Shown here one piece after another: positions 11,094 to 34,874 of a stretch of 64,000 nt of DNA (position 1 is the stretch's first letter; each line of letters begins with the position of its first letter). Origin of the DNA: Minisyncoccia bacterium (GTDB lineage: Bacteria > Patescibacteriota > Minisyncoccia > Phycocordibacterales > UBA9973). The stretch spans positions 75,188 through 139,187 of the forward strand of contig JBDHUP010000002.1 of the NCBI GenBank assembly GCA_039809245.1, read 5' to 3'. The position numbers and the translations under genes are program-made. The notes beneath the pieces are model-generated. The model did not search any database. It was not told the DNA's origin and was given only the letters and a program-made list of their open reading frames with translations.

Positions 11094-11304
11094 AGTATTG
11101 TTATTATTATCTATTAATACTTTATTATTACTATTAATTATGTGAATATGTGGATTACTTTTTATATACTTATATTATAAAGTTTTTATGTATTTTTTAT
11201 TTCTAATTAAAATAAATTTTTTGTTGATTAGTTTATATTTGTATTTTTTATATAAACTTTTCCACAAACTATTATTTTTTAAACACAGTTTTTCCACATA
11301 CTTA
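11094..11304. other. Putative oriC / DNA-unwinding region (dnaN-dnaA intergenic, very AT-rich, DnaA-box-like 9-mers)
   Basis: tgtggatta (11143-11151, rc TAATCCACA), TTTTCCACA at ~11252 and ~11290, long A/T tracts. Confidence 0.5.
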
Positions 11305-12663: not shown

Positions 12664-12785
12664 TATACTCTAGTTTTCCAAACTCCCAATAATTCAATGT
12701 CTGGATTAACCTGTTAACAACCTGTGGATATGTTTACACCCCTATAAACATTGCTTTTAATGTAATTTTAGTATATATTTCCCTT
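12664..12785. promoter_or_regulatory. dnaA/rpmH divergent promoter region with DnaA-box-like element (second oriC candidate)
   Basis: ctgtggata at 12717-12725 (rc TATCCACAG). Confidence 0.35.
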
Positions 12786-12926
12786 ATGTCTCAAACATAT
12801 CAACCAAACACACGGAAACGAGCTAAATCTCATGGCTTCTTAGTAAGAGCCAAAACTCCTGGTGGCAAGAAAGTTAATGCTCGCCGACGACAAAAAGGTC
12901 GGGCTAGAGTTTCAATCAAGAAATAA
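12786..12926 (+). CDS. rpmH: 50S ribosomal protein L34
   Basis: 46 aa [46 protein letters not shown]. Not in the ORF track (<60 aa). Confidence 0.9.
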
Positions 12927-12929
12927 GCT

Positions 12930-14710: not shown

Positions 14711-16057
14711 TTAGTTTAAGTCTAGACTCCACAATGTGGAGTCTTTCTTATTTATGAAGAATAGCTGACTATCTTTGTCATCTAAGAATAAATGTATTCC
14801 ATCTATAGGTGAGCCATATGTTGAGTCGGCGATAGTAGTTATTTCGTTAGTGGCTGAATTTATCTTAATAAAACGATCAGTGAAAGAAACCAGCCCTTGA
14901 TACCAGCTATCAGGATATTGATTACCATCTATACTATTAGGGATAGCACAATAAATAATTGAAGGATTATTTGCCCAAACACACTTTTCTGGGAGTCCAT
15001 AAATATTTAAATCTAAAGACGAATGATTTTTAACATTAAATATTTCTAATTTAGGACCTGTATCAAAAGAGGCACTATATAAAACAAGCGAACCATCACT
15101 ATTTGCAAGAGTAGTGAGCCCAGGTATTCCACCTAAAATTTTTGTTAAGACTCCACTTATAGCATTTAAGCTAAATAAACTTCCATCGACAGAATAAGAG
15201 GCTTTGGTCGTGAGATATATTTTTTGATCAGTAACCCATTGTGATAACCATTCAGTTATAGATGAGTTAAATACTTGAGTTTTCTTAGTATCATTAAAAG
15301 ATCTTGTTGAACCCGTTACACCACTAAATGTTTTAGTTAGGTAAAAGAATTTTGTTTTATCTGGAGAAAGACTTACATCTAAAATATTTGATGGAAGGAA
15401 CTCTCCTTGAGTACCTCCAAGTGTAGCAAAGAAACTCGTTATAGATTTATTATCACTATCTAAATATCTATATATGACAGAAGAAGCCTTGCTATCAAAA
15501 AACGCTTCATAAATATTTGGTATTGTTGAATTAGAAACCTCTCCTGTAGCTTTCGTATCTAGATACATTTGCTCAATGTGACCTGTGGCACGCTCGACAT
15601 ATCTTAGAGACGGAACTGTTTCAAATTTTGGTGGTGCTGGTTTAGGAACAGTTTTAGTCTTCTTTGTTGTTGTTTTTGGAACTTCCTCTGTAGGTGCTTC
15701 TCCACCAGGCAAGGATACTTCCTCTGTAGGTAAAGGCCTCATGTCTTCAAAGAAAGCTGCTCCTGCTACTGAGAATTCTGTTAATTTGTGAAATCTAGAT
15801 GATTCTTGAGCTATTTGAGGGTTTGTGTTTGTATTTGAACTAGTGTTTAAATTTGTTGTGCCAACATCACCACCAGATGTAGTTGTGTTATTTGTTGTGT
15901 TTTGAGTTGTACCCCCTCCTAAGAATGGCTGGTATTGTTGATTATCTGTAGCACTGTTGCTTGTTGTTGTTTTGTTGGTGTATAAATAAAAACCTAGAGA
16001 TATAACTCCAACTAAAATGAATACAGTTATGAAAATGATTTTTGTTTTTCGTGGCAT
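14711..16057 (-). CDS. T4SS-like cluster gene 12: membrane-anchored protein with a Thr/Asn-rich low-complexity linker, a Pro-rich segment and a C-terminal beta-rich (propeller-like) domain
   Basis: N-terminal TM KIIFITVFILVGVISLGFYLY. TTSNSATDNQQ...TNLNTSSNTNTN linker. Confidence 0.5.
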   Translation of the reverse strand: MPRKTKIIFITVFILVGVISLGFYLYTNKTTTSNSATDNQQYQPFLGGGTTQNTTNNTTTSGGDVGTTNLNTSSNTNTNPQIAQESSRFHKLTEFSVAGAAFFEDMRPLPTEEVSLPGGEAPTEEVPKTTTKKTKTVPKPAPPKFETVPSLRYVERATGHIEQMYLDTKATGEVSNSTIPNIYEAFFDSKASSVIYRYLDSDNKSITSFFATLGGTQGEFLPSNILDVSLSPDKTKFFYLTKTFSGVTGSTRSFNDTKKTQVFNSSITEWLSQWVTDQKIYLTTKASYSVDGSLFSLNAISGVLTKILGGIPGLTTLANSDGSLVLYSASFDTGPKLEIFNVKNHSSLDLNIYGLPEKCVWANNPSIIYCAIPNSIDGNQYPDSWYQGLVSFTDRFIKINSATNEITTIADSTYGSPIDGIHLFLDDKDSQLFFINKKDSTLWSLDLN

Positions 16058-16060
16058 ATA

Positions 16061-17647
16061 TTATTTATTTATCTTAGGCCAGTTCTTGTTAACTCCATTT
16101 AAATTTGATTTATAAAATTGGGCAGCTGCAAAAGTATTATGATAAGCATCAAGTATTGTTCCACCTTTTTTCCCAAAATTATTAAACACATCTTTACTTA
16201 ATTGGAATAATCCAGAATACCCAAATTTATTTACTGTAGTGATTGATGCTTGAGTTGTACAACCTCCAGCTGACTCTATTCTACACATAGTTCTTAGTTG
16301 GGATACATCTACACCTGTCTCACCAGAGACTTTTACAAGGCTACTATCAATGAAGCTTGGAATTGCAGGGGTTGTCTTTCTTTTTACTGCCGCTACTTTT
16401 ACTGCCCAATATTTTAAGAAATTAGCAGTAGTTAAAGTTGATGTTCCTATTGTCTTCTGTGCACTCGCTGGATTGAAATTGTTCCTCATATTCCTAGCTA
16501 TATCTCCTCTAGCAAATGGATTATTTGCTGGTACTTGAGTATACCCCTTTTTTGCAGCCCAAAGTATTGCTGAAGCTCCTGCTGTCCCTTGTTGGTGGGC
16601 TAGATAACCTAAAAATGAAGGATCATTATAATCTGAAGGATTAATAGTTATGTTAGAAATATCAAAGCTATCAATGTTATTCATAAAGTCAGGATCATCA
16701 GCACGATCTCGTGCTACTATCACTGATTCTACTTGATCTACCGTTACCCCATTTTTACCTGTCAGGTCAGGATTGATAGTATTTAATATCAAGTATGCAC
16801 CTAAGGCGATAAATAGGCCCAGAATAGCTGATAAGATTTTACTTTTTGCTTCAGTTTTACCAAAAACAGATTCGTCTCCCATATATTGTATTCCACTTAT
16901 AACAATCATTACGACAGCAAGTACTCCACAGATTCCTATCGCAAGTAAGAATATAATATTTAAGTAACAACCGATACCATTATTTAAATCTGGATTTCCA
17001 GGACACTTACCCCCTTGAGATTTTACTTCTTTCAAATTGCCTATAGGCGCAAGTAATTTATAAACATTGTCGCTACTGTTATCTCCACTTCCAACATCAA
17101 GATTATAAACCTCATCTTGTTTACCAGTAGCTTTTACAGCTTCAGCTGTTTTCTGAACACAATCACTTGAGCTAGAAGAACCGCTTGCAAGTTTATCTTT
17201 TGCTAATTCTGATCTACAACTCTCTGGTGTTTCAAAGGGACCTATATAGTATCCAGCGAAATTAACAAACCACCACTTTAAGTTACTAGGGGCTGGGGTT
17301 GAATCAACAGTAAACTCAGTGTCACTAACAGCAGTTCCTCTGGATGCTGTCTTTATAGTTATTTTACCAGTTACAGCATTTTCAGGAACTTTGACCTCGA
17401 GTAAATCTAACCCTTGTGGATTTAGGGTTGTATTTGTTACGGTAGCTTGAATTGAGCCAAATAAGACGCTTGTTATTTGATAAAAATTGAACCCACTAAT
17501 AGTTATTAGATCACCAGGTCTACCTGATCCAGGATCGAATCCTTTTATCTCAATGTTATTTCCCGCGTTTGAAATATTAAAGAGTAAACAAAATAAAAAG
17601 AAAGTCAGTAAAGATATTTTTAAAATTCTAGATAAATGTTTTTTCAT
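16061..17647 (-). CDS. T4SS-like cluster gene 11: secreted protein with central VirB2/TrbC-pilin-like helical hairpin fused to a C-terminal VirB1-like lytic transglycosylase (SLT) domain
   Basis: Signal peptide. Two hydrophobic helices around residues 230-300 (IIFLLAIGICGVLAVVMIVISGIQYM / ILSAILGLFIALGAYLILN). C-terminal RIESAGG...YSGLFQL...DAYHNTFAAAQFY resembles the SLT E-S...GLMQ...AYN motif set. Confidence 0.5.
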   Translation of the reverse strand: MKKHLSRILKISLLTFFLFCLLFNISNAGNNIEIKGFDPGSGRPGDLITISGFNFYQITSVLFGSIQATVTNTTLNPQGLDLLEVKVPENAVTGKITIKTASRGTAVSDTEFTVDSTPAPSNLKWWFVNFAGYYIGPFETPESCRSELAKDKLASGSSSSSDCVQKTAEAVKATGKQDEVYNLDVGSGDNSSDNVYKLLAPIGNLKEVKSQGGKCPGNPDLNNGIGCYLNIIFLLAIGICGVLAVVMIVISGIQYMGDESVFGKTEAKSKILSAILGLFIALGAYLILNTINPDLTGKNGVTVDQVESVIVARDRADDPDFMNNIDSFDISNITINPSDYNDPSFLGYLAHQQGTAGASAILWAAKKGYTQVPANNPFARGDIARNMRNNFNPASAQKTIGTSTLTTANFLKYWAVKVAAVKRKTTPAIPSFIDSSLVKVSGETGVDVSQLRTMCRIESAGGCTTQASITTVNKFGYSGLFQLSKDVFNNFGKKGGTILDAYHNTFAAAQFYKSNLNGVNKNWPKINK

Positions 17648-17649
17648 AA

Positions 17650-18645
17650 TTAAAGACTCAATTTAAGCTTACCTGTTACTTTCTGATAAAGTGTGTTTAG
17701 GTTTTCAAAGACAACATCTATAGTGGCATATCCACCACGAGATGCTGGGCGAATAGTGAGCTCAGTCTTTTTTGAAGGGGTGGCTATATCTTTACCATTT
17801 ATCTTCCATTCATAAGAAAAGTTGTTTTCATTTCCATTTAGAGATATGAAGTAAGGTTCTGCTACAATAGTAACTTCATCTTCACTAATAAAAGAACCAT
17901 CTCCCAGTGCTTGATTATACAGGATGCCTTCAGTTGGTGATTTTTTGTAAAATACAACTTTTGGTTTTGTTATTGGGACTTCAATTGTTCCAACTGCACG
18001 ATATCTTCCATCTATAGATTCTGCAGTTACGCTGACATTCTCACTATCATTTAACTCACTATTTTTAAATACATAAGAGTCCTTGTTGTAGCCAGATACA
18101 CCCAGCACTGTATTATTATTAGACTTCCATGTATAAGTTATGGAACCCTTACCTTGCTTAATAGTATTAGTATTTGGAATTGCCACAACTTTTATTAAAC
18201 CTTCAGCTGTTGGGAAAGATTTTCCTCGGTAAAATGGTGGAGTATATGAATCAACTCCCTCCCAAACTAGTTCAACCTCTGACGGGTTAATAGTCACCCT
18301 CTTTGTAATATTATCTAAAGAGCCTGGTATACTAATAGTAATATCTAGTATAGTAATAGTATTTGGCCCTTGTGTCTTAAAAGAATAACTTGTCTTACCA
18401 TATCCTGATAGAACAATACTAGACCCACTTTGCCATTGGATAAATGCCTTATTTAAATCAGTAGCATAACTATTTAAACTTACTGTTACATCTTGATATG
18501 GCTGTGGGTTTTCAGGAATTATATCGGCTGAAACATCCCCTTCTTGAGGGTTTATCTGGTTCGCTGCCATAGAAACTCTACCCACATAAATTAAGCCAAG
18601 AACTAGGAGAATACTAAACAATATTTTTAGTCTTATTTTAGTCAC
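17650..18645 (-). CDS. T4SS-like cluster gene 10: secreted beta-rich protein
   Basis: N-terminal signal/TM, no recognisable catalytic motif. Confidence 0.45.
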   Translation of the reverse strand: MTKIRLKILFSILLVLGLIYVGRVSMAANQINPQEGDVSADIIPENPQPYQDVTVSLNSYATDLNKAFIQWQSGSSIVLSGYGKTSYSFKTQGPNTITILDITISIPGSLDNITKRVTINPSEVELVWEGVDSYTPPFYRGKSFPTAEGLIKVVAIPNTNTIKQGKGSITYTWKSNNNTVLGVSGYNKDSYVFKNSELNDSENVSVTAESIDGRYRAVGTIEVPITKPKVVFYKKSPTEGILYNQALGDGSFISEDEVTIVAEPYFISLNGNENNFSYEWKINGKDIATPSKKTELTIRPASRGGYATIDVVFENLNTLYQKVTGKLKLSL

Positions 18646-18703
18646 TTTTATATTATACGCGAACCTAACTCCCTAAACAACTGTATTTTAATAGTTATTA
18701 AGT

Positions 18704-20545
18704 TTATGAAGGGTTGGATGTGTTTGATGTGGTTAGTTCGTCCTTTGCTTTCTTTATAGCAAGTATTTGCGAAGGATCAGAAGTGATTATCTGATCTTCT
18801 GTATATGAAGCAATAGTCTTTACAGCTACGTGCTTAAGACCAGCGAAGAATATCCCCTCCCCGACGTTTGCCTCAAGAAGTAAGTACTTCTCTTCATCTG
18901 TTAAATTAAAGGTTTTTTGCAATACATCAACAGTAGATGGAGATTGCTTCAATAGTAATTGGATTGAAGAGTTCGTAACAATTGGCACACCGTAAGGGCT
19001 TTTCATGAAATCCCCTACGTCTTGAGTAATAGTTGCAAGGCCGAGATAGTATTTACGCCCACGTTTTGCAATAGAATATAAGAATGAAGCAGTATCTTCT
19101 GACTTCATCATCCACCAAGCCTCATCCACAACAAGAAGCCTTTTCTTTATATTTTTACGGATTGCATTCCATATAAAGTGAGTAACTATATACATAGCAA
19201 CTGGTTTTAGCTCGTCTTCCATGTCACGGACAGAGAAAACAACGAACTTTCTGTTTATATCTACGTTCGATGGTTGGTTTAAGAATGATGACCATGATCC
19301 GTGAGTGAATTTCGCCAATCTTTGTATTAGTGAACCACTACCATCCATACCAGCGAGAACCATTTCAAAATCAGAAAGAAGAGGCGGTTCTATATCCGCG
19401 AAGTTTGAATCGGCTGTAATATCTTTCAATGCATATGTCTCAGTAATAGCACTATCGATAATAGAATCTTCTTCTGGGGTTAGTCCTCCAAGCATTATGC
19501 GGAATAATCCTACAAGGTTTATGGTGTTTGCACGTAAAACGTCAGCCCCTGTTTCATCGGCTGTAGGTATAGGTAAATCGAAAGGATTAATATGGTGATC
19601 AGAAGAAAGAGCAATATTAAAGTATCTTCCTCCGACAGCTTCAGACAAATACTCATACTCACGCTCTGGGTCGATAACAATAACTTCAGTATCAAACATC
19701 AGAGTGCGGATTATCTCGAGTTTGGTTGCATAAGACTTACCCGCTCCAGAAGTAGCAAACGTAATAGAATTATAGTTTGGAAGTGAGAATCTATCAAAGA
19801 TAATAAGACTAGAATTGTGTCGATTTACTCCATATAGTATTCCTTTATCAGAAGTAAGATCAAAAGATACAAAAGGGAAAAGACTAGACAAAGGCTCTGT
19901 ATTTAGCTTCTGGTGTATTCCTAGTAAGTCAGTTTCTAAAGGGATAACACTCTTGAATGCTTCACCTTGTTGGAATAGTGCAGGCTTTAGATATACTAAT
20001 TTTGATTCAAGAAGTGATTTGATCTCACTTTCAACTTTAAAGAGGTCATTTTCACTATCAGCATATATTGTTATGTACAGACCTACATCGAACATTTTCT
20101 CTTGTGCTTGCATCAAATTATCTCTTAAACCTTCAAGATCTCTGTATGCAGTGTCGAGCATTGGATCACGAACAAGACCTTTTGATTCGCGGATAGAAAT
20201 CTGACTTTGGACTTCAGCTACCTTTTTCTGGAACATATGTAGCACATCTCCAGTATCAATTGGATGTATGAAAATAGACACATCGAAAACTTTATCTAGA
20301 TTTATGATAGGAGAAAACCAGTTATCTGTTAGATATCTAGGATATGAAATAACAAAGAAAGTGCGAGCAATTTTATCACCTAGATTGAGCGACTTCGGAG
20401 TTACTTGAAGAGCTGAAGGGGCTATGATATCTTGGAGTTCTAAAGTTGCGGCTTTATATATTTCAGTAGGAAGCACTGGCATAACAGTACTTTTTGCTTT
20501 TGAAACATTATCCCCTTTCCCAAATAATGATGAAAATATACCCAT
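18704..20545 (-). CDS. virB4: VirB4/TrbE/CagE-family conjugative-transfer-type ATPase (ATPase domain)
   Basis: Walker A FATSGAGKSYATK, Walker B LLVVDEAWWM, conserved ITQDVGDF segment. Length and order typical of VirB4. Confidence 0.8.
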   Translation of the reverse strand: MGIFSSLFGKGDNVSKAKSTVMPVLPTEIYKAATLELQDIIAPSALQVTPKSLNLGDKIARTFFVISYPRYLTDNWFSPIINLDKVFDVSIFIHPIDTGDVLHMFQKKVAEVQSQISIRESKGLVRDPMLDTAYRDLEGLRDNLMQAQEKMFDVGLYITIYADSENDLFKVESEIKSLLESKLVYLKPALFQQGEAFKSVIPLETDLLGIHQKLNTEPLSSLFPFVSFDLTSDKGILYGVNRHNSSLIIFDRFSLPNYNSITFATSGAGKSYATKLEIIRTLMFDTEVIVIDPEREYEYLSEAVGGRYFNIALSSDHHINPFDLPIPTADETGADVLRANTINLVGLFRIMLGGLTPEEDSIIDSAITETYALKDITADSNFADIEPPLLSDFEMVLAGMDGSGSLIQRLAKFTHGSWSSFLNQPSNVDINRKFVVFSVRDMEDELKPVAMYIVTHFIWNAIRKNIKKRLLVVDEAWWMMKSEDTASFLYSIAKRGRKYYLGLATITQDVGDFMKSPYGVPIVTNSSIQLLLKQSPSTVDVLQKTFNLTDEEKYLLLEANVGEGIFFAGLKHVAVKTIASYTEDQIITSDPSQILAIKKAKDELTTSNTSNPS

Positions 20546-20546
20546 A

Positions 20547-21200
20547 TTATTGTAATTTTATACCCTGACTAATGTCCCCAGGATTAAATGTCTTATAAAA
20601 AAGTTCTACTATCTCCTCTGTTTTCAATTGGCTACTTCTTATACCAATACCTCCAAGCCCAGAAATAATAACGTTAATACGTTGATCAAGCTGACTACGC
20701 TTCTCCTCGAAAGATGCTAAGTCCATAGCCTTTTTATTTTCTTCTACTTGTTTCTTCTCTGCTTTGCCACCAATTATCTTATCTAAAACATCATCGCTTG
20801 ATTTAAATACAGCAGAACTATATGGAACAACTACAAAGAAAGTTTTCGTCATAATGTTTACCTCATCAGTAAAAGAACGTATAAAATCAATATATTCCTT
20901 TGTTTGTATTTTTAATAACTTCTCATTTTGAACCTTCAATCTCTCTTCTAACATTAAAAGATAAGGACGGATATCGAGTCTACGAGACTGCATTACAATC
21001 TGAGTAGGAAAATCTAATCCATTTAAAAAAGATTGGAACTGACTAATAATAGCAGTCTGTTCATCAGAAGACTTTAGGGAAAGGTTAATAGAAGAAGCAA
21101 TGAGAACAGCACGAAGCCCTCCATCCTTTAGAATGATGACCCCGTTACGGACTTCTTTGATTGGTACAAATTCTTGAGCTGCACGTGCATTTATCGCCAT
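20547..21200 (-). CDS. VirB4 N-terminal domain homolog encoded as a separate ORF (junction TAA-T-ATG with the ATPase ORF)
   Basis: VPIKEVRNGVIILKDGGLRAVLIASSINLS pattern resembles the VirB4/CagE N-terminal domain. Stop at 20547-20549, next ATG at 20543-20545, different frame. Confidence 0.5.
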   Translation of the reverse strand: MAINARAAQEFVPIKEVRNGVIILKDGGLRAVLIASSINLSLKSSDEQTAIISQFQSFLNGLDFPTQIVMQSRRLDIRPYLLMLEERLKVQNEKLLKIQTKEYIDFIRSFTDEVNIMTKTFFVVVPYSSAVFKSSDDVLDKIIGGKAEKKQVEENKKAMDLASFEEKRSQLDQRINVIISGLGGIGIRSSQLKTEEIVELFYKTFNPGDISQGIKLQ

Positions 21201-21229
21201 ACTATAATTATATCATATATTAACTAGCA

Positions 21230-21637
21230 TTAATTTTCTTTCTCTTCTACGTCTAGACTCCAGGATAGATCTTTTAGTTTACTACTACTTAGTGTAGGTA
21301 GAGTAGAGACTTTTGAAGGCATATTAATGTCTTCATCTTTTTTATCGCTATTTTTCGCTAAGCGTTGCTTCCAAACATAAAGTTTACTTGAAACTGCGTA
21401 GCTAATAGCTGCTTGAAGATAGTAAATAAATGGTTTGTTGTTTATCTTGTGGAAAGTAAGAAGCGCAGCAAGACCTGCCACAGGAATTATTAAGAAAATA
21501 CCAATCCAAAGAGGAAGAAGCTTGTATATTACGAATATCATACCAGCTCCACCGACTAAGTAGACGAATTGTCGGAAAGTAAAAGGACCGAAAAGTTTAT
21601 CTTCGATATCGATAAATTGTGGAACTTTGAATTGCAT
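21230..21637 (-). CDS. PrgI-like / VirB3-like small two-TM T4SS protein
   Basis: 135 aa. N-terminal VPQFIDIEDKLFGPFTFRQFVYLVGG followed by two TM helices. Positioned immediately upstream of VirB4 as in Gram-positive T4SS operons. Confidence 0.55.
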   Translation of the reverse strand: MQFKVPQFIDIEDKLFGPFTFRQFVYLVGGAGMIFVIYKLLPLWIGIFLIIPVAGLAALLTFHKINNKPFIYYLQAAISYAVSSKLYVWKQRLAKNSDKKDEDINMPSKVSTLPTLSSSKLKDLSWSLDVEEKEN

Positions 21638-21656
21638 ATTTATATTGTATCACAAA

Positions 21657-22715
21657 CTATTCTATAGGTTCGTGGTAAGGATCGTGTTGTCTTGAAGTTA
21701 CCCCATCCTTACTTACCTTTGGCAGTGAGTAGTCAGTTGTAGAAGTAGAACTACTTGTTGCTCCAGCTAATTTGTCTCCGATGATACTCTTTTCAAGAAG
21801 ATCATCTTTCATTTCTTCCATTGGCATTGTTGGGATATTCTCTGGTGGTTTGGTATCTATTATTTCTTTCTCAGGAGTAACAATATTCTCTTTTGGTTTC
21901 TGTATATCTGCATCTTTCATTATTTCAATACCAGAATCTGAGTATATTTTGGATTCATCACTAGCTTTAGGAGTTGAACTCGTTACAACTTTTGGCATTG
22001 CATATGGTGGTATTGGGACCTCGTCGTCATCTAGATCTTCCGTATCATTACCTCCCCAATGCTTCTTTAATATCTCTTTAATATTCTTTAAAACTTTCTC
22101 ATTCACTTCATCTACAATTTCAATGATCTCCTCTTTTGGTATGGCTATGTTTGCTTGTAACTCGGCTTCATATCTATCTGGATGAATTATACCGAGCATT
22201 ACTTTTGTTGTAGCTTCATCGAGAGCCCCCATATGATTAATAGAAAGTTTGTGTTTGCTCGCTATTTCATATAGAGCAGCTTGATAACCAGATTCACTGA
22301 TTGCAACTTGTACTTCTTTAGGTAGCTTTGCAAAGCGTTCGTCAAGTTCTTTTACTCCACCATAATTTTTTTCGGCAACATCAATATTGTTTTTATTATA
22401 GGCTTCTGATAATTTTGGTTTTATTACATCTAGTATACTTGTATTTATTTCTCCAACCATTTTTTGAATTAAATCTGCCGAAATCGAAATCTCAGCTTCA
22501 AGATTTCTTTCATATTCTTCTGCGCTAATCATACCAAGTAACACTAGGGTTGTTTCAGCCCCAAGGGAACCTTTTTGTTCTTCTGTAAGACCATACTTGC
22601 TACTAATTTCTCCAATAGCATCCATCCACTTCATACTAGAAAACATTTCTTGCATATCTGGTGAAAGTTTTGAGTAATATAAGGCTATTTGTTGTTGTAA
22701 TTGTGTTTGATCCAT
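21657..22715 (-). CDS. T4SS-like cluster gene 6: cytoplasmic protein with an internal ~115-aa tandem duplication and an acidic/Pro-rich tail
   Basis: No signal peptide. Repeat 1 ...EISSKYGLTEEQ...VLLGMISAEEYERNLEAEISI..., repeat 2 ...EIASKHKLSINH...VMLGIIHPDRYEAELQANIAI... Confidence 0.5.
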   Translation of the reverse strand: MDQTQLQQQIALYYSKLSPDMQEMFSSMKWMDAIGEISSKYGLTEEQKGSLGAETTLVLLGMISAEEYERNLEAEISISADLIQKMVGEINTSILDVIKPKLSEAYNKNNIDVAEKNYGGVKELDERFAKLPKEVQVAISESGYQAALYEIASKHKLSINHMGALDEATTKVMLGIIHPDRYEAELQANIAIPKEEIIEIVDEVNEKVLKNIKEILKKHWGGNDTEDLDDDEVPIPPYAMPKVVTSSTPKASDESKIYSDSGIEIMKDADIQKPKENIVTPEKEIIDTKPPENIPTMPMEEMKDDLLEKSIIGDKLAGATSSSTSTTDYSLPKVSKDGVTSRQHDPYHEPIE

Positions 22716-22727
22716 AATTATTTAATA

Positions 22728-25439
22728 TTAGTGATGTCCTCCTCCACCATGATCATCACTACTTTTACCATGACTTTCTTCTACTTTCACGCTTACCTTT
22801 GCACTCTTTAATGCTTCTGTAATTGTATGACCAATATCTTTCAAGAAATCATTTTGACCAGAACCGTGATTTATATTACTTGTTTTTAATCCTGTCCTTA
22901 CTCCCATAGCAATACCAGCTATTAACCCTGCTGTCATCTTTGTTCCAATCCCTTCCCTCTTATCTGCTTTAGTTTGTGAAAGGTTTCTAGCATCATAACT
23001 ACCTTTGTTTGATCTAGAGAAAACTCTTTCTACCCCACTAATTTTCTTGCTAGATTCTTCCTGTAAATGACTAAATCTTGTATTAGATTCTTTCTCTATA
23101 GAAGTTTTTAATACAGCATTAAATTCAACATTTAACTTGTCTTCAATTTCCTTCTTTGCTTCGTCAGTTAATTCCCCATTCTTACCAACCTTTGTATTTT
23201 TACCTGTGGTAGGATCTTTATATGATTTAGCGGCAGAAACTTCTGCTCCTCTATTTGCAGCTTTAAATCCACTTTCTCCTCCAGTGATAATATTACCATT
23301 CCTATCTTTAGCAGGCTGACCTGTTGAGTCAACAAGTGGGGCTGCACCTTTTCTTATATCGGCTTCAATTTCACCCTTCTTTTCTTTTGTATAAGTTTTA
23401 GCTAGCTTTTCTTTATCCACTCCTGATAGTTGGTAATCTTCAACACCTTTTAGTCCAGCCTTTTCTTTAATAGCATCAACTTCATGGCGAGCGTGGTCTA
23501 CTTCGTTTACTTTCATTTGTTTTGCATTTAGATTACCACCTAATCTAGTCAAGAGACTTGTTTTAACTCCAGCAGCTTTTGCATGATCTTCCCATTTTGG
23601 CTTAGCTCCCTTCTTACCACCGTTTTCCCAAGCTTCCAGTTTCTGATTAAAAGCTAGTTTTTCTTTTCCATAATGCATAGCATCTGGTGTTCTAGAAGCA
23701 GCAGCCATACCTCTTCCTAATAGGTTTCTACCAAGCATTGCTCCTCCCAATGCTGCGCCACCAAGAGCAAGTCCTCCAATAGTTGCAACTCCACCTGTGA
23801 TTGATTGACCAAGTTTACCAGACATATCCTTCGCTAGATCTTTAGCTTTCCAAAGAAGAACCATAATAAATGCAAACGGTACAACAGTAGCTACTATGAA
23901 AGCTATACCACTTAGGTCTTGTGTATTTATTAAACCTAATCCAGTTTGTAAAAATGCAATTATTAAGTACAAGAAGAACATAAATACTGGAGCAAGGAAT
24001 GCCAGCTTTAGAGTTTCAGGCCACCAATGTTTCCAACCAACCATACTCATACCTTGCATTGCTGGTACTGTATAACTAAAGAATGCTAAAGGCACAAATA
24101 TCATAGCAAGCCATAAACCTATAACTCTTGCTATGAATATCATTCCAACAGATAAAAAGACAATTATACCAGTTACATTTACCGCAACAGCAAGTAATGT
24201 TATTAAAATAAAAGCTCCCGCTCCTAAGTTACCTCCATTTATTGTTGCATCACTTACTTTTTGACCGCTTACAGAGTCTTCTACACTAACATTATTTGCT
24301 CCATTTATTATTAGATTCTGTGGGTTTACCTTATTCACAATAGCAGCTGATAATGGTATTTCACCATTTGGACCTTCTTTTAAAGATGGGGTGCTATCAG
24401 AAACACCGTTTGCTCCACTTTCTGTAATTTTTATAGCATCAGAATTGTAAAAAACTCTGGCTAATATATTTGAACTATCTATAATAACTTGTGCAGCGAA
24501 AAGACTAAAGTTAATAAGTAGACCAATTATGACTACATTTATTATAAGTTGCTTTGTATTTGGACCATGACCACCACTAAAACCTAATATAGTTCTAAAC
24601 GCTATATATAGTAGGACAAAGATAAAGAATATATTACAAAAATCGCGAACTATTCCCCATCCTTGTAAAACGAAAGGTGAACGATAAGATGAATCACTAA
24701 CTGAATAATGGAAAGTAAAATCAAAAAACTGACCAGTTAATGCAAATATATATGAAGTGGGTATAAAAAGTACGTAATAAATAAGTTGCGCCGCACACCC
24801 CACTACGGTTCCTGTTTTTGAGAATAATCCACAAGGGGGCATTATCGCATCTAAACTCAAACTTTTTTTGACAGAAGTTGATGTGGTAGTAACATCACCA
24901 CTTTTGTTTGTCGTAATATTAAAAGATAGATATGCTGCATCATTATTACTACCAAGTGTTAGATTGTTTACTATAAAAGTTAGAGGGGCACCCCAAAAAC
25001 CTATAGTTTGAGTAGCTACTATAGTTACATGATATGTTGTATTCGGAGATAGCCCTGTTATTGGTAGACTACCCCTTTGTACAGTGTATGGAAGAGGGTC
25101 GCTAGTATGGTTTGCACGGTAAGCCTGCGTAGCAGCATCATCAGTGTTTACCGTCATATCTGTTTTAGTTATAACCGAAGATCCATCTTTCTGTAATAGA
25201 ACCTGAATATCATCACTAGTTCTATTGTCGTCTATATACCAAACGACTTTTGCGTCTGGTGTTATTGTTGTATCGTTTTTTGCTACACTAGCTTCTAAAG
25301 ATATTCCTACTACATCTTTTGCTTCAGCTACCGACTTTTTTATTATAGGGTTATTTTGATTGTCTATTCCAAAACTAAAAGGCGCGAAGATGTTCACAAG
25401 TATCAGAAATATAAAAATTGAAGGGAGAATCTTTTTCAC
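22728..25439 (-). CDS. VirB6/TrbL-like polytopic membrane protein (903 aa): signal peptide, ~200-aa extracytoplasmic beta domain, >=6 TM segments, ~350-aa Lys/Gly-rich cytoplasmic tail ending HGGGGHH
   Basis: Hydrophobic segments between residues ~190-560. Gly-zipper GGVATIGGLALGGAALGGAMLG. Architecture and position match VirB6-family proteins of monoderm T4SSs (PrgH/TcpH/ConG-like). Confidence 0.5.
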   Translation of the reverse strand: MKKILPSIFIFLILVNIFAPFSFGIDNQNNPIIKKSVAEAKDVVGISLEASVAKNDTTITPDAKVVWYIDDNRTSDDIQVLLQKDGSSVITKTDMTVNTDDAATQAYRANHTSDPLPYTVQRGSLPITGLSPNTTYHVTIVATQTIGFWGAPLTFIVNNLTLGSNNDAAYLSFNITTNKSGDVTTTSTSVKKSLSLDAIMPPCGLFSKTGTVVGCAAQLIYYVLFIPTSYIFALTGQFFDFTFHYSVSDSSYRSPFVLQGWGIVRDFCNIFFIFVLLYIAFRTILGFSGGHGPNTKQLIINVVIIGLLINFSLFAAQVIIDSSNILARVFYNSDAIKITESGANGVSDSTPSLKEGPNGEIPLSAAIVNKVNPQNLIINGANNVSVEDSVSGQKVSDATINGGNLGAGAFILITLLAVAVNVTGIIVFLSVGMIFIARVIGLWLAMIFVPLAFFSYTVPAMQGMSMVGWKHWWPETLKLAFLAPVFMFFLYLIIAFLQTGLGLINTQDLSGIAFIVATVVPFAFIMVLLWKAKDLAKDMSGKLGQSITGGVATIGGLALGGAALGGAMLGRNLLGRGMAAASRTPDAMHYGKEKLAFNQKLEAWENGGKKGAKPKWEDHAKAAGVKTSLLTRLGGNLNAKQMKVNEVDHARHEVDAIKEKAGLKGVEDYQLSGVDKEKLAKTYTKEKKGEIEADIRKGAAPLVDSTGQPAKDRNGNIITGGESGFKAANRGAEVSAAKSYKDPTTGKNTKVGKNGELTDEAKKEIEDKLNVEFNAVLKTSIEKESNTRFSHLQEESSKKISGVERVFSRSNKGSYDARNLSQTKADKREGIGTKMTAGLIAGIAMGVRTGLKTSNINHGSGQNDFLKDIGHTITEALKSAKVSVKVEESHGKSSDDHGGGGHH

Positions 25440-25503
25440 ACAATATATTATACCAATTTTATTACTAAATCCCAGCCTTTGATGCTGGTTTATTTAGTAA
25501 ATT

Positions 25504-26457
25504 TTACCAGATATTGAATAGCAATTCGTAAAGTCCATATCCTTGTACATATTCTGGTCCAGTAACTGTAGTAGCAGTAGTATTAACAGTTGTAGCAGGT
25601 TGTTGATAATAAGGATTGTCTTTTATTTCTTGAGGGCCTGTATAGCCTGGATTTGCTTTCTGAGCCTTACAATCATTTATCAGTATTGTAGCTTGCTTAA
25701 CTAATTCTTCATTAGTTTGATTATCATAATCTAGAAGAGTGATATCGTCTTCTATTCTGAGGGTTGGAGCTAGTAGATAGTACTGTCTAAGTAAAACTGC
25801 TAATTCAGCTTTCTCATCTTCGGTAAATACTAAAGGATCATCGGGGCACATACCACCTACTGCAGTTGTCGAGGTATCCCTTGTCCTACTTTCATCGTTG
25901 ATAGTTCTATCATATGAAAGATTATTATTTTCATTAAAGTCAGTGTGGCATCCTGGATCATTAATATCTGCAACACGGTCTCCATCATTATCAACTCCAT
26001 CAGAACATTGTGTGACAGTCACTGGTCCACCACTCGGTCCACAAGGAATCACATTTCCGTTTGAGTCTTTACACTCATTCGGGTTAGGCACTGGAGTTGG
26101 GATTGGAGCAAGCGGTGGAAGAATCGGTCCAGGTAGATTTGTATTTCCTCCACCATTTCCATTATTACCACCAGAGTTAGAGCCACCTCCGTTAGACACA
26201 CCAATATCTACATTGGTTACTCCATTGTCAGAGTCAGATGTATTAGTTGCTCCATTATTAGAATTATCTACTACTATAGTATCAGCCTTTTTTTCTTTAG
26301 ATGTTCCTAGTAAAGGAGAGAAAATTTTTCCAACAGTTGTTGAGCTATTAAATATTTTTGCATTACTTTTGAATAATAAATAACCCACTATCAAAAGCAG
26401 TAATACTACTATTATTGTAATCACTAAGGCTTTACTTTTTTTAGGGTTATGTTCCAT
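25504..26457 (-). CDS. T4SS-like cluster gene 4: membrane-anchored protein with Gly/Asn-rich and Pro-rich linkers and a Cys/Asp-rich putative metal(Ca)-binding module (CSDGVDNDGDRVADINDPGC)
   Basis: N-terminal TM ALVITIIVVLLLLIVGYLLF. MopE-like C-x-DG-x-DNDGD motif. Confidence 0.45.
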   Translation of the reverse strand: MEHNPKKSKALVITIIVVLLLLIVGYLLFKSNAKIFNSSTTVGKIFSPLLGTSKEKKADTIVVDNSNNGATNTSDSDNGVTNVDIGVSNGGGSNSGGNNGNGGGNTNLPGPILPPLAPIPTPVPNPNECKDSNGNVIPCGPSGGPVTVTQCSDGVDNDGDRVADINDPGCHTDFNENNNLSYDRTINDESRTRDTSTTAVGGMCPDDPLVFTEDEKAELAVLLRQYYLLAPTLRIEDDITLLDYDNQTNEELVKQATILINDCKAQKANPGYTGPQEIKDNPYYQQPATTVNTTATTVTGPEYVQGYGLYELLFNIW

Positions 26458-26466
26458 ACAATTTAA

Positions 26467-28935
26467 TTAATATTTTAGTACATCATTTTCTACCCAGGTT
26501 ACTTTTTCATTATCAAGACATATCTGTGGCATCGCTGGTAATCCATCGTTAGCTCTCCTTGTCTTTCTGCGATTTTGAGCGGCGGTAATTATTACATTTA
26601 CTTTGTCTTTTATAAAACCAAGTCTATATATAGCTCCACTAGTCTGGGCAAAGTTATCTTTTGCTGTATCAATAGCTCCTGGTAAATCTTCTGCATCGGT
26701 TACTATGTTCTTCGTCATATCAAGACCAGCTTGAGCCATAGGTAGGAATGCTGGATTATAATTTCCTTGTGGGGTAAACTCAGTCCTCATAGGACTATTA
26801 ATACCAAATTTGTCATTTACTTTAACGACATATTCGTCGTAAGCTCTCTTTGCGGCATCAGTCCACCTTGCAACTTGTGCTTCTACATATGCAGGGTCTA
26901 CATACCAATGGTTTGTTCCTATACCGTAAGTCTGATGATGATCATTATGAGCTATCCAGAATGATTGGTGCACTTCAATTTTTGGCCACAAGTTTCTAGC
27001 ATCATCGAATAATTTTTGATAATTTGTATAATCCGGATAAGAGATAACATCGTAAGAGTGATCGTAACTTGCAAATATTGAACCAATTCCACAGACAATA
27101 CCACTAGGATCTAAAGGAGCATTACAATTAAATATATCGGATATATGTTCTGTTGTTACGCCACTTAAGTAAGCAAAGTATTCATTTCGAGCTTCATCAG
27201 AGTTACTAACCCAGTTCGTATTTGGTCCTGGAATACAGTAATCAAGTTCAGAAAGCTTCGGAAGTACTTGTGGTAGAACAGCAACTGTCTTAGTAATAGA
27301 CTTCATATAATCTTTCTGAAGTTGGAACACACCCTTTTTATCTATAATATGTTTCGGTAATCCTAAGTTCCATTTCTTCCCATCATAATAAACTTTCTCT
27401 CCTACATGCCAGGTGTGAGTACCTGCAAATAATCTTGTATTACCTGAGACAGATACTGTATAGTACTGATTCTTTATTCCGGTATCAGGTAGTATCTCTG
27501 GAGTATTTGTATTTGCATCCCATGTGCCACTATCTATTGGTTGGGCATATTTGTTTCCTAGATCTTTTGTAAGATCAAAAGAAGCACTAACTTGATTGCC
27601 TCCGGTTTCTTCACCAAACACACCTGTTGATGAGAGAGTATTGCCCAGTGTATCGACAAGACTATTAGATCCGAATCCACCTCCGGCTGGTGTAGTCCAG
27701 TTGTTTACCTTTGATCCTAATCCTGACAAACCTTGGCTTTCAAATTTATTTATAAGAGCACTGAAAAGTGAATTTAATGCATCGTTTAAAGTGTCAGCCA
27801 GCTCTATTTGGCGCTCAGGAGAGTTGATATATGTATCAATTTTTGCTTTTATAACACTACCTGGAGTAACAGTTTCATATTTTAAACATCTAGGCACAGC
27901 TGTTGCGGAAGTTGTGTTGCCGCCACTCGGTGTACCTAAACAGTTCCCTTTTCTATCCTTAATACCACAAGAATCAGTACCTGTTGTTCTTGTTGGGGCA
28001 ACAGGAGCATATTCAATACATTTCTTCTGGTCAAATACTCCTCCATTTCTATTTAATTCATTCTGAGCATTTGAAGTGGCGACTTCTTTTTGATTCTCTA
28101 GATTTTCTGACGCTTTTAAATTAAACCCTAATGGATTATTTTGTGAATGTTGTGTTAGTGCTAACCAACCATTCCAACCACCTTGTGAAAAGTCAGTAGC
28201 GAAGCTATCAGGAGTTGCTCCTGGTTCTAGATAATCAGTCAGGTCTTGCTTTAAAGCCCCATATTGATCCTTCCCTACTTTGTATGCATTTATTTGCCCT
28301 CTCGCATAATCACGGCCGTATGGATAATATTTCTCATTATCAATATTCCCGAATATCTCAGTTTCCTTTTTCAGTATCCCTGTTGTAAGGCTGTCCATAT
28401 ATGAGTTTACATCTCTGACATATAAAGGGTCGCCATTGAACCCTGTTGTAATCCAGTTCATAGTGTATTTGGTCATAGCGGTCAACTGGTTTTTAGCAAG
28501 AGTGATAGCAATACCCTTCAAACAGTTTTCTGTGAAAGCTTTAGAATCGGCTGCATCCTTAACTTCTTGTTTTGTTTCCACCTCTTTTTCTAAATTACTC
28601 GAATCTATACTAGGGACACTACTGTTTTGCTGGGTAGTTGCATCTTTTTTTGTCGCAATTTTTTCTTTCTTTTTACTTAATATTTTTTGAGCAAATTGGA
28701 CTGTGACTTTTGAAACCTTATCTACTATTCCAGTACAACCTACCAGGTTAGTTAGTAGACCACTAGATATAATACCGTTGAGTGATAGCTTATAAGGATT
28801 ATCTCCATTCTTATTTGGATTGTCATAGTTTAGAGCTTGGTTATCAGCCAGTACAGTAGAAGGCAAAACAGCTTGCATTAAAAATATGCTAATGATAAAT
28901 AAAGATAATATTTTTTTAGCAGTCTGTTTCTTCAT
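26467..28935 (-). CDS. T4SS-like cluster gene 3: large (822 aa) secreted protein
   Basis: Signal peptide MKKQTAKKILSLFIISIFLMQAVLPSTVLA. No recognisable motif. Confidence 0.45.
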   Translation of the reverse strand: MKKQTAKKILSLFIISIFLMQAVLPSTVLADNQALNYDNPNKNGDNPYKLSLNGIISSGLLTNLVGCTGIVDKVSKVTVQFAQKILSKKKEKIATKKDATTQQNSSVPSIDSSNLEKEVETKQEVKDAADSKAFTENCLKGIAITLAKNQLTAMTKYTMNWITTGFNGDPLYVRDVNSYMDSLTTGILKKETEIFGNIDNEKYYPYGRDYARGQINAYKVGKDQYGALKQDLTDYLEPGATPDSFATDFSQGGWNGWLALTQHSQNNPLGFNLKASENLENQKEVATSNAQNELNRNGGVFDQKKCIEYAPVAPTRTTGTDSCGIKDRKGNCLGTPSGGNTTSATAVPRCLKYETVTPGSVIKAKIDTYINSPERQIELADTLNDALNSLFSALINKFESQGLSGLGSKVNNWTTPAGGGFGSNSLVDTLGNTLSSTGVFGEETGGNQVSASFDLTKDLGNKYAQPIDSGTWDANTNTPEILPDTGIKNQYYTVSVSGNTRLFAGTHTWHVGEKVYYDGKKWNLGLPKHIIDKKGVFQLQKDYMKSITKTVAVLPQVLPKLSELDYCIPGPNTNWVSNSDEARNEYFAYLSGVTTEHISDIFNCNAPLDPSGIVCGIGSIFASYDHSYDVISYPDYTNYQKLFDDARNLWPKIEVHQSFWIAHNDHHQTYGIGTNHWYVDPAYVEAQVARWTDAAKRAYDEYVVKVNDKFGINSPMRTEFTPQGNYNPAFLPMAQAGLDMTKNIVTDAEDLPGAIDTAKDNFAQTSGAIYRLGFIKDKVNVIITAAQNRRKTRRANDGLPAMPQICLDNEKVTWVENDVLKY

Positions 28936-28961
28936 TGAAATTAATGCTTATAGTATAACAC

Positions 28962-29831
28962 TTATTGTATTGCATTTGAAAGGGCGGTTACATTGTTAAC
29001 AATAGCATCTGTGTACTTTTTGTAATTGATTAAAGCTTTCATACCAAGCAAAGGTTCTACAAGCATTTGAGACATATCTTTTATAGACTGAGATACATTT
29101 TCATAGTTGTTAGCAAGAGATAAATGTATATCGCTGAGGGTATTTGGAACTTGTATTTTTATTAATTCTTTTGAGAATGAATCATATAGATCTGCTACTT
29201 TATCCGCTTCTGCAAAAGCTTGAGGATCGTTAGTGCTTAATCCGACACTTATGAAAGTTAATTCCTTTCCTAAGTCTTCCTGCTCATACTTTTTTATTAG
29301 GTTCGCTACTTTAGTAGAGTAGGCATCTGTATTTGCAGGGTTTGCTTTGATTGTAGATACCATATCTTTAGTGTATTTATTAGGAAGTGGAACAGCTACA
29401 ATCTTCTGGCCAATAGTTTCAGCTATAGATTGCATTGAATTTTCATCTAGGTTACCTGATTCTTGAAGCGACATTACAATAGCAAAAAATTCTCTAGACA
29501 ATGTTTCATTTTCACTTAAAGGTTCATTGCTTTTTGAATCAGCTCCATTTTCTTTGGCAAGAGTTTCTCTTTTTATCATAATAAACTCTTTATTTGAATC
29601 CCCATTCCCTTTTGGATCAAGACCCCACAATGACTCTTCCCAATCAGGGATACCATTATTATTACTATCTTTCTGGATGACTCCCGGTTCTATAACCACA
29701 GGTGAATTATCTTTATGCAGTTTATTCTTAAAGAAAATAGCGATCTTATATACGCAAACAGCAATAATTAGAAGAGCAATTATTGATAATACTCTTTTTA
29801 TAAACTGTTTGCTTGGTAAATAATTTTCCAT
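28962..29831 (-). CDS. T4SS-like cluster gene 2: bitopic membrane protein (N-terminal TM + ~250-aa external domain). VirB8-like topology, which is speculative
   Basis: TM VLSIIALLIIAVCVYKIAIFF. Confidence 0.4.
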   Translation of the reverse strand: MENYLPSKQFIKRVLSIIALLIIAVCVYKIAIFFKNKLHKDNSPVVIEPGVIQKDSNNNGIPDWEESLWGLDPKGNGDSNKEFIMIKRETLAKENGADSKSNEPLSENETLSREFFAIVMSLQESGNLDENSMQSIAETIGQKIVAVPLPNKYTKDMVSTIKANPANTDAYSTKVANLIKKYEQEDLGKELTFISVGLSTNDPQAFAEADKVADLYDSFSKELIKIQVPNTLSDIHLSLANNYENVSQSIKDMSQMLVEPLLGMKALINYKKYTDAIVNNVTALSNAIQ

Positions 29832-29835
29832 TTAT

Positions 29836-30234
29836 TTATCTAGAAGTTCCATATAATGTTATTGGAGTAAGTTGAACAGTTGCTGTCCTTGGAGGATATC
29901 CTTGATAGATACAAGTTATTGAAGTTTTTGATTGGCTATATAAGCCTTTTATTTCTTGGCCAGCACGAGCACTTGTATTTGTTTTTGATTTAACAGCAGC
30001 TGGTATTAGGTATGTAATAGGAGCTGAGCTGACTTTAGATCTTATGGTAATAGTTGATCCTGGAACGATACAGTTGTATCCAGCATTTTCATATGATTGT
30101 ATTTCTGTAGCCTTAGTGTTAACTATTTGCCCACCAAATGGTTTACTTGCTGAAGCTGCGCTAACAGTGTCAAAAGCTATTGCTACCACTAATATAACTA
30201 ATAGTAATAATATTTTATGTAAGTTGCTTTTCAT
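29836..30234 (-). CDS. T4SS-like cluster gene 1: small secreted protein (132 aa)
   Basis: Signal peptide MKSNLHKILLLLVILVVAIAFDTVSA. First gene of the cluster. Confidence 0.45.
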   Translation of the reverse strand: MKSNLHKILLLLVILVVAIAFDTVSAASASKPFGGQIVNTKATEIQSYENAGYNCIVPGSTITIRSKVSSAPITYLIPAAVKSKTNTSARAGQEIKGLYSQSKTSITCIYQGYPPRTATVQLTPITLYGTSR

Positions 30235-30239
30235 ACAAT

Positions 30240-30275
30240 ATATTATACAGCATTTTTATTAAATTATCCTATGTG
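30240..30275 (-). promoter_or_regulatory. Candidate promoter for the T4SS-like cluster (TG-TATAAT extended -10 on the minus strand, inside the 3' end of ksgA)
   Basis: Minus-strand reading ...aaaaatgcTGTATAATatattgtATG. Confidence 0.3.
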
Positions 30276-34845: not shown

Positions 34846-34874
34846 AATCCCCGACAGAATCGGGGATTTTATTA
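34846..34874. terminator. Bidirectional intrinsic terminator
   Basis: aaatccccgacagaatcggggattttatt. Confidence 0.65.

Follow-up and report, generated by a model that had tools for sequence, protein, structure and literature searches.

The 64-kb window analyzed here (64,000 nt of contig JBDHUP010000002.1, assembly GCA_039809245.1, from a Minisyncoccia bacterium) carries at positions 14711-30234 a cluster of twelve genes that almost certainly encodes a chromosomal type IV secretion system (T4SS) of the Patescibacteria type. We think it likely that this is a fixed, vertically inherited system beside the replication origin of a Nomurabacteria-like Paceibacteria genome, that it comes from the monoderm MPF_FATA class, and that it serves exchange with a host cell. 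Taken on its own, the proposition that the apparatus is a host-interaction translocon and not a conjugation machine is one toward which we lean with noticeably more reserve. Both the cluster type and this reading of it are already in print (papers of 2023-2025), and the cluster adds no new principle.

The twelve open reading frames (ORFs), designated g1 (14711) to g12 (29836), all lie on the minus strand and are transcribed in the direction g12 to g1, with intergenic gaps of only 1-64 nt. They are flanked on one side by dnaN, dnaA, rnpA, a yidD-like ORF, yidC, and jag, and on the other by ksgA and a UvrD/PcrA helicase gene. The first-pass annotation of the window, which was made from the sequence without database searches, had described twelve packed minus-strand genes in the jag-ksgA interval beside dnaA/dnaN, and both the ORF coordinates and the identities of the flanking genes bear this out. 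The genes are as follows.

g1, 14711-16057, minus strand: membrane-anchored protein, 448 aa, last gene of the cluster (transmembrane segment at 7-25)
g2, 16061-17647, minus strand: modular protein, 528 aa (Pfam, SLT matches of homologues, alignment)
g3, 17650-18645, minus strand: predicted secreted protein, 331 aa (signal-like N-terminus)
g4, 18704-20545, minus strand: VirB4 ATPase, C-terminal motor part, 613 aa (Pfam, NCBIfam, Walker motifs)
g5, 20547-21200, minus strand: TrsD-like protein, VirB4 N-terminal domain as a separate ORF, 217 aa (NCBIfam)
g6, 21230-21637, minus strand: PrgI/VirB3-like protein with two transmembrane segments, 135 aa (Pfam)
g7, 21657-22715, minus strand: predicted cytoplasmic protein, 352 aa (no hydrophobic segment)
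g8, 22728-25439, minus strand: VirB6-like polytopic protein, 903 aa (transmembrane prediction, AlphaFold model)
g9, 25504-26457, minus strand: membrane-anchored, Cys-rich protein, 317 aa (transmembrane segment at 11-29, 6 Cys)
g10, 26467-28935, minus strand: secreted or anchored protein, 822 aa (N-terminal hydrophobic segment)
g11, 28962-29831, minus strand: membrane-anchored protein, 289 aa (transmembrane segment at 14-32)
g12, 29836-30234, minus strand: protein with a signal or anchor, 132 aa, first gene of the cluster (one N-terminal hydrophobic segment)

Conservation and chromosomal setting

Relatives were gathered by a VirB4 scan over one genome per species, which found at least 591, and the best 80 loci (L001-L080) were analyzed. 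These 80 best VirB4 relatives, which are 75-93% identical to the window protein, all come from metagenome-assembled genomes (MAGs) of Patescibacteria that carry Paceibacteria, Nomurabacteria, or Parcubacteria labels. Nearly all of the loci long enough to display gene order keep the arrangement dnaN-dnaA-rnpA-yidC-jag-(g1 to g11)-ksgA-uvrD, so the cluster does not show the patchy distribution among relatives expected of an integrative and conjugative element (ICE). Other downstream neighbors were seen in L013, L051, L056, and L060. In two more distant loci (L073 and L074, one with a Wolfebacteria label), the gene directly upstream of PrgI-TrsD-VirB4 encodes an M23 peptidase; g7-g11 are not adjacent there, so not all relatives share the upstream half of the cluster. 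Many of the loci (L001, L006, L008, L009, and other TPA_asm loci) are titled "uncultured Candidatus Saccharibacteria bacterium", but these titles look like mislabels because VirB4 identity (75-93%) and complete synteny tie the loci to MAGs of Paceibacteria/Nomurabacteria.

For the comparison of conservation, the 50 loci with all of VirB4, DnaA, DnaN, and YidC were used. VirB4 identity exceeded DnaA identity in every one of the 50, with medians of 79% and 65%, respectively (window positions 18704-20545 versus 11305-12663); for the same loci the median was 61% for TrsD, 52% for PrgI, and 28-45% for the envelope proteins. VirB4 thus appears to be under stronger constraint than DnaA in these loci. 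The GC content is 35.5% in the cluster as compared to 35.9% outside it. Because gene order and site are conserved and VirB4 is more conserved than DnaA, these comparisons mark the cluster as a core, vertically inherited locus rather than an ICE remnant. The first-pass annotation had likewise proposed a fixed Gram-positive-type T4SS and not the remnant of an ICE or plasmid, a view with which the synteny, the VirB4-DnaA comparison, the native GC content, and the lack of mobility genes in the window all agree.

The search for mobility genes covered 54 ORFs of the 64-kb window with Pfam and returned no relaxase, no VirD4/TcpA coupling protein, and no integrase at the borders of the cluster. We considered whether a coupling ATPase was hidden among the unannotated ORFs of the window and rejected this, as none of the nine ORFs checked, which had no hit or had not been scanned, contains a Walker A motif. 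There were no flanking repeats of note and no repeats resembling an origin of transfer (oriT) nearby, and tRNA genes were found only at 53.7-55 kb, 23 kb from the cluster. The first-pass statement therefore holds across the window for a relaxase and VirD4, and at the borders of the cluster for an integrase, flanking repeats, and tRNA genes. The nearest recombinase gene (46386-47315, plus strand), 16 kb away, encodes a tyrosine-type (Xer) enzyme with an N-terminal SAM-like domain, and no tRNA or other mobile-element genes were seen flanking it.

Nine-mers matching the DnaA box with one mismatch occur three times in the 211-bp dnaA-dnaN spacer (11094-11304) and once upstream of dnaA (12664-12929), positions that are consistent with an origin at dnaA-dnaN; DnaA-box-like 9-mers showed no overall enrichment across the window. 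GC skew was also tried as a means of locating the origin and was set aside because, within the window, the skew follows gene strand and is uninformative.

A near-identical 21-nt sequence, GTATAATATATTGT(G/A)TG, is found at 25433-25453 and at 30228-30248, where its end coincides with the start codon of g8 and of g12, respectively. At g12, a TATAAT box lies 7 nt before the ATG, within this near-repeat common to the g8 start. In many of the window's genes, g12, g8, g6, g5, and g3 among them, a TATAAT-like box precedes the start codon by 5-9 nt and a Shine-Dalgarno sequence is lacking, which suggests that mRNAs are leaderless and that there are promoters internal to the cluster.

Core proteins and their partners

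The motor of the system is recognizable in g4, which matched P-loop_TraG in Pfam (8.9e-25) and conju_CD1110 in NCBIfam (2.4e-107; 360 bits, over the cutoff of 325 bits), with the Walker A motif (GAGKS) at residue 264 and the Walker B motif (LLVVDE) at residue 470. These matches and motifs establish the VirB4 with Walker A and B motifs that the first-pass annotation had named. That account had a single VirB4 gene, but the N-terminal domain is encoded separately, by the TrsD-like 217-aa g5. By itself, g5 matched the NCBIfam TrsD/TraD model at 5.6e-8, below that model's own cutoff. Because g5 covers the start of the CD1110 VirB4 model (positions 2-136), whereas g4 matches only from position 182, VirB4 is divided over two ORFs (g5 and g4), like TrsD and TrsE of pGO1, and the split is kept in nearly all loci. 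A TrsD-like protein is the commonest companion of VirB4 in Patescibacteria. Only this TrsD-like gene stands between VirB4 and g6, which matched PrgI in Pfam (1.9e-9; 38.4 bits, over the gathering score of 27), in agreement with its first-pass description as a PrgI/VirB3-like protein with two transmembrane segments; its orthologues in 75 loci share 40-77% identity.

The 903-aa g8 has a signal peptide and approximately 6-7 transmembrane segments, and its predicted parts, besides the signal peptide, are an ectodomain of FN3-like type, a helical core in the membrane, and a long tail, also helical, in the cytoplasm. In the AlphaFold model (predicted local distance difference test score [pLDDT] 78, predicted template modeling score [pTM] 0.59), the ectodomain is FN3-like and the membrane core matches TrwI/VirB6, and on the basis of this model g8 would be a channel protein of VirB6 fold that bears an FN3 ectodomain. 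Sequence methods (Pfam, PDB profile search, and hhalign) gave no VirB6/TrbL signal for g8, and 19 of its homologues gave no TrbL/VirB6 match in Pfam. Comparison of the g8 family to PrgH of pCF10 by hhalign was not significant (E 0.28), and a Foldseek search of the model against the PDB returned nothing at E<=1e-3. PF19590, a precomputed tag on some g8 homologues, was not reproducible even at E<=10. The designation of g8 as a VirB6-like polytopic protein in the first-pass annotation is thus upheld by the modelled membrane core but not by any signal in the sequence.

The 528-aa g2 combines, in order, a signal peptide, a TIG domain (Pfam, 5e-5), a Cys-containing linker, a T4SS-pilin (VirB2-like) hairpin (T4SS_pilin, 8.4e-5; 23.0 bits, slightly below the gathering score of 26.6), and an SLT/phi6-P5-like lytic transglycosylase head. 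We accept the earlier claim that it is a pilin-like hairpin fused to an SLT domain: T4SS_pilin (PF18895) matched 57 of 72 positional g2 orthologues at E<1e-3, with 9e-10 as the best value, close homologues that share the C-terminus exceed the gathering score of SLT in Pfam, and the catalytic motifs C-x-I-E458-S459 and G479-L-F-Q482 are invariant in the alignment. When the window protein was searched alone with Pfam and against the PDB, no SLT was detected in its C-terminal domain; the best PDB profile match, to the lytic transglycosylase P5 of phage phi6, was not significant, and hhalign found no match of the g2 family to PrgK or PrgF.

Among positional orthologues, the hairpin is the only part of g2 that is conserved. 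The other domains found in the 72 proteins at this position are NlpC/P60 (16), VanY (8), YkuD (5), Amidase_5 (4), and M15_4 (3), together with several SLT types, Amidase_2, and 3D. In the ten closest genomes, whose VirB4 proteins are 86-93% identical, the head is a divergent SLT, a canonical SLT, VanY/M15 (in three), YkuD, unrecognized, or absent. The survey of Patescibacteria T4SSs in PMC12102498 takes VirB1 and VirB2 as separate components and contains no mention of hairpin-enzyme fusions, and head swapping on a constant pilin hairpin was not found in a full-text literature search. It is conceivable, though we consider it doubtful, that g2 is a membrane- or pilus-borne carrier of interchangeable wall enzymes aimed at the wall of the host and not at the cell's own.

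The first-pass annotation had counted seven further proteins as signal-peptide-bearing or membrane-anchored and of unknown function. Hydrophobic-segment analysis agrees for six of these (g1, g3, g9, g10, g11, and g12, with one N-terminal hydrophobic segment each) but not for g7, which has none and is predicted to be cytoplasmic. None of the seven (g1, g3, g7, and g9-g12) has a relative worth the name in Pfam, NCBIfam, or the PDB, and sequence and profile searches of the PDB with g1, g3, g7, g10, and g11 returned nothing significant. In g1, a low-complexity linker is followed by a conserved C-terminal domain of ∼300 aa, found in 65 loci, which is possibly a beta-propeller (the sole PDB hint is to the TolB propeller, E 0.04). 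The downstream partner of VirB4, g3, is present in 76 loci, matched aBig_2 weakly in Pfam, and is probably built of Ig-like (immunoglobulin-like) beta-sandwich domains. A D-P-Y motif in the C-terminal part of g7 is invariant, and the protein also has an internal repeat; its gene lies between the VirB6-like gene and PrgI in most loci.

The Cys-rich g9 matched an NCBIfam acidic double-disulfide repeat (9e-9; 34.9 bits, under the cutoff of 41). Its homologues are loosely related, anchored, Cys-rich proteins of 270-1165 aa found in about half of the clusters, and elsewhere g10 is followed directly by g8; in L004 and L054, small ORFs without an N-terminal hydrophobic segment are inserted in the g9 slot between g10 and g8. 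The family of g10 is linked to the cluster and unannotated, and in a library of 1.84 billion proteins its representatives number 11,325 at E<=1e-3 and 947 at E<=1e-30; profile positions ∼130-480 are the most widely shared, and a literature search found no report of the size of the family or of its lack of annotation. A D-x-D-G-D-G...DWEE motif and a helical ectodomain are features of g11, which was found in 36 loci. By contrast with these, g12 was found by tblastn in L001, the closest relative, only, with ORF-level blastp also labelling one ORF in L064, and it appears to be a lineage-restricted accessory gene.

Outside the cluster, the window contains two paralogous, Cys-rich 565-aa proteins with many CxxC pairs (34872-36569, minus strand, and 49209-50906, plus strand). 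They share N-terminal CxxCxKxF...CPxCR and C-terminal CYQQE motifs, and their sole match was a weak one of the second copy to a treble-clef zinc finger.

Known systems and alternative functions

Two published studies describe systems of this type. Wang et al. (2023, Cell; PMC10633639) reported in Southlakia epibionticum an unusual Gram-positive-like T4SS with pilins and no recognizable relaxase or coupling protein, and showed that the T4SS genes are essential for epibiotic growth. These genes (SEML1_0005-0019) come directly after dnaA..recF, in the order VirB6-like, PrgI, 0009, VirB4, 0007, lysozyme, and exported Ig-like protein. In a survey of 3,035 genomes, Quinonero-Coronel et al. (2025; PMC12102498) found that the VirB4 clade of Patescibacteria is monophyletic and nested in MPF_FATA, that TrsD, PrgI, VirB6, and PF18895 pilins are encoded near virB4, and that the cluster of Paceibacteria is close to dnaA, dnaN, rnpA, and ksgA. 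Table S3 of that study lists for RAAC4_OD1_1 genes 531 (VirB6, by the T_virB6 hidden Markov model [HMM]), 533 (VirB3), 534 (TrsD, by FATA_TrsD), 535 (VirB4), and 537 (VirB2). This genome is our locus L010, with a VirB4 86% identical to that of the window, and the five genes match g8, g6, g5, g4, and g2, respectively. Published points on the T4SSs of Patescibacteria are restated in a 2025 FEMS review.

With these systems (SEML1_0005-0019; RAAC4_OD1_1 531-537) the cluster shares a VirB6-like protein, PrgI, TrsD, VirB4, a PF18895 pilin, a peptidoglycan hydrolase, and an exported Ig-like protein, as well as the order around VirB4, an origin-proximal site, and the lack of a relaxase or type IV coupling protein (T4CP) within the cluster. 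There are also differences. Saccharimonadia encode six small pilins in an array, and their triple-lysozyme protein is separate, whereas here one gene fuses the hairpin to a wall-cleaving head. S. epibionticum has an NTF2/VirB8-like protein (SEML1_0012), of which none was recognized here, and its exported Ig/PEGA protein (SEML1_0005) is encoded at the downstream end of the locus, like g3, but two genes further from VirB4. No annotated counterpart of g1, g10, or g11 exists in the described Patescibacteria T4SSs.

The likeness to pCF10 and the MPF_FATA class consists of a CD1110-family VirB4, PrgI, a separate TrsD-like protein (as with TrsD plus TrsE of pGO1), and the lack of outer-membrane core proteins, and the order VirB6-VirB3-VirB4-hydrolase is colinear with prgH-I-J-K of pCF10. 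At the sequence level, hhalign of g8, g2, g1, g3, and g11 against PrgH, PrgK, PrgF, and PrgL gave nothing significant. The pCF10 plasmid carries PcfC (VirD4), a relaxase, the adhesin PrgB, and PrgL (VirB8-like) nearby, but none of these is found in the window, and MPF_FATA systems are normally without VirB2-type pilins (PMC12102498). Genes of Mycoplasma ICEs provided the second-best NCBIfam match for both VirB4 (Mbov_0397, 4.1e-74) and the TrsD-like protein (2.7e-11), far below the cutoffs, and the match of the g2 hairpin to the pilin-like family of Mbov_0395 was weak (0.0068, far below cutoff). Both the Mycoplasma ICEs and the cluster belong to wall-poor or monoderm lineages and have a pilin-like hairpin in an MPF_FATA-type system; however, the Mycoplasma elements are mobile and carry integration functions. 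The ComB system of Helicobacter pylori resembles the cluster in being a chromosomal, T4SS-derived machine without a relaxase or coupling protein. ComB is a T4SS that works in import with neither a relaxase nor a T4CP. It is a diderm system (VirB2-4/6-10) with an outer-membrane core, whereas the VirB4 described here is of the monoderm CD1110 type, and no Pfam or NCBIfam match to VirB7, VirB9, or VirB10 was found in the cluster.

Uptake of DNA in the manner of ComB, in which the T4SS would draw DNA from the host or the environment through the wall, either as a source of nucleotides or for transformation, is the strongest of the alternatives, although we judge it unlikely. The idea has already been raised in a 2024 perspective (PMC11665869), in which the ComB precedent for import without a relaxase or T4CP is cited; in addition, Patescibacteria are unable to make nucleotides (PMC10633639; FEMS review 2025), and in the class ABY1 the T4SS adjoins comF, recG, and radA (PMC12102498). 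The window itself contains ComM and a PilB-type ATPase, both of which the first-pass annotation had pointed out and Pfam identified. However, ComM is 6 kb from the cluster, and neither Pfam nor NCBIfam detected a DNA-binding or nuclease domain in the cluster. S. epibionticum needs its T4SS but can do without comEC, which argues against ComEC-dependent uptake as the essential role, and transformation there depends on type IV pili (FEMS review 2025).

Working conjugation or DNA export, with a coupling protein and an unrecognized relaxase encoded elsewhere in the genome, is in our estimation very improbable. T4CP genes are often unlinked from virB4, as are the t4cp1 and t4cp2 genes of RAAC4_OD1_1, and such genes occur in 2,918 of 3,035 Patescibacteria genomes, but relaxases were found in just 103 of the 3,035, and t4cp is not essential in S. 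epibionticum although the T4SS genes are (PMC12102498). Strict vertical inheritance at a fixed chromosomal site and the lack of oriT-like repeats or mobility genes nearby also speak against conjugation. Finally, a decaying ICE remnant without current function, which the missing relaxase, T4CP, and integrase (as in degraded ICEs) and the division of VirB4 over two ORFs might have indicated, can for practical purposes be dismissed on the grounds of conservation, site fidelity, and composition, as all 12 ORFs are intact and tightly packed, nearly all relatives share the VirB4 split, which has its parallel in TrsD/TrsE, VirB4 retains 75-93% identity from species to species and surpasses DnaA in conservation, the genes keep their order at an unchanged insertion site, and the composition is native.

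Proposed role in host contact

For the fixed Patescibacteria-type T4SS that we favor, the following arrangement is proposed. VirB4/TrsD, docked through PrgI onto the VirB6-like g8, would power assembly or transport via a membrane channel, with g7 acting at the cytoplasmic side. The hairpin-anchored g2, with both of its ends outside the cell, would open the peptidoglycan, and g1, g3, g9, g10, g11, and g12 would build or decorate the extracellular part. Together the parts would make up a translocon that spans the single membrane and the wall and whose job would be the exchange of macromolecules with the host cell of the epibiont (export of effectors or import of host material) and not conjugative DNA transfer.

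Several points weigh against this proposal. The VirB6 homology of g8 comes from structure prediction and from an HMM assignment published for its orthologue. No VirB8-like (NTF2-fold) protein was matched in the cluster by Pfam or NCBIfam, nor did the g1, g3, and g11 families show any similarity to PrgL by hhalign; VirB8 is seldom found in Patescibacteria (PMC12102498). Because large domains lie on either side of its hairpin, g2 may not polymerize as a pilus. RAAC4_OD1_1 has VirD4-like (t4cp1) and TcpA-like (t4cp2) genes far from virB4 (PMC12102498), and since so close a relative carries VirD4-like genes, the lack of VirD4 holds for the window and not necessarily for the whole genome. Finally, the 2024 perspective calls the function of Patescibacteria T4SSs "completely unknown" (PMC11665869).

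A large part of bacterial diversity belongs to the Patescibacteria, whose way of life is attachment to other microbes, and the manner in which they obtain what they need from these hosts is a central question; S. epibionticum, the only species amenable to genetics, cannot do without its T4SS. The cluster described here is a clean, compact example from Paceibacteria, in which a fused pilin-hydrolase is accompanied by conserved, unannotated partners (g1, g3, g10, and g11), all of which would be good targets for structural and biochemical work. If g2 does carry interchangeable wall enzymes directed at the host, fast head swapping on a fixed anchor would fit adaptation to differing host envelopes, the T4SS would be a feeding conduit that breaches the host wall, and the unannotated g10 family would be a further core part of it. 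The constraint on VirB4 beyond that on DnaA and the swapping of wall-enzyme heads may guide the priorities of experiments.

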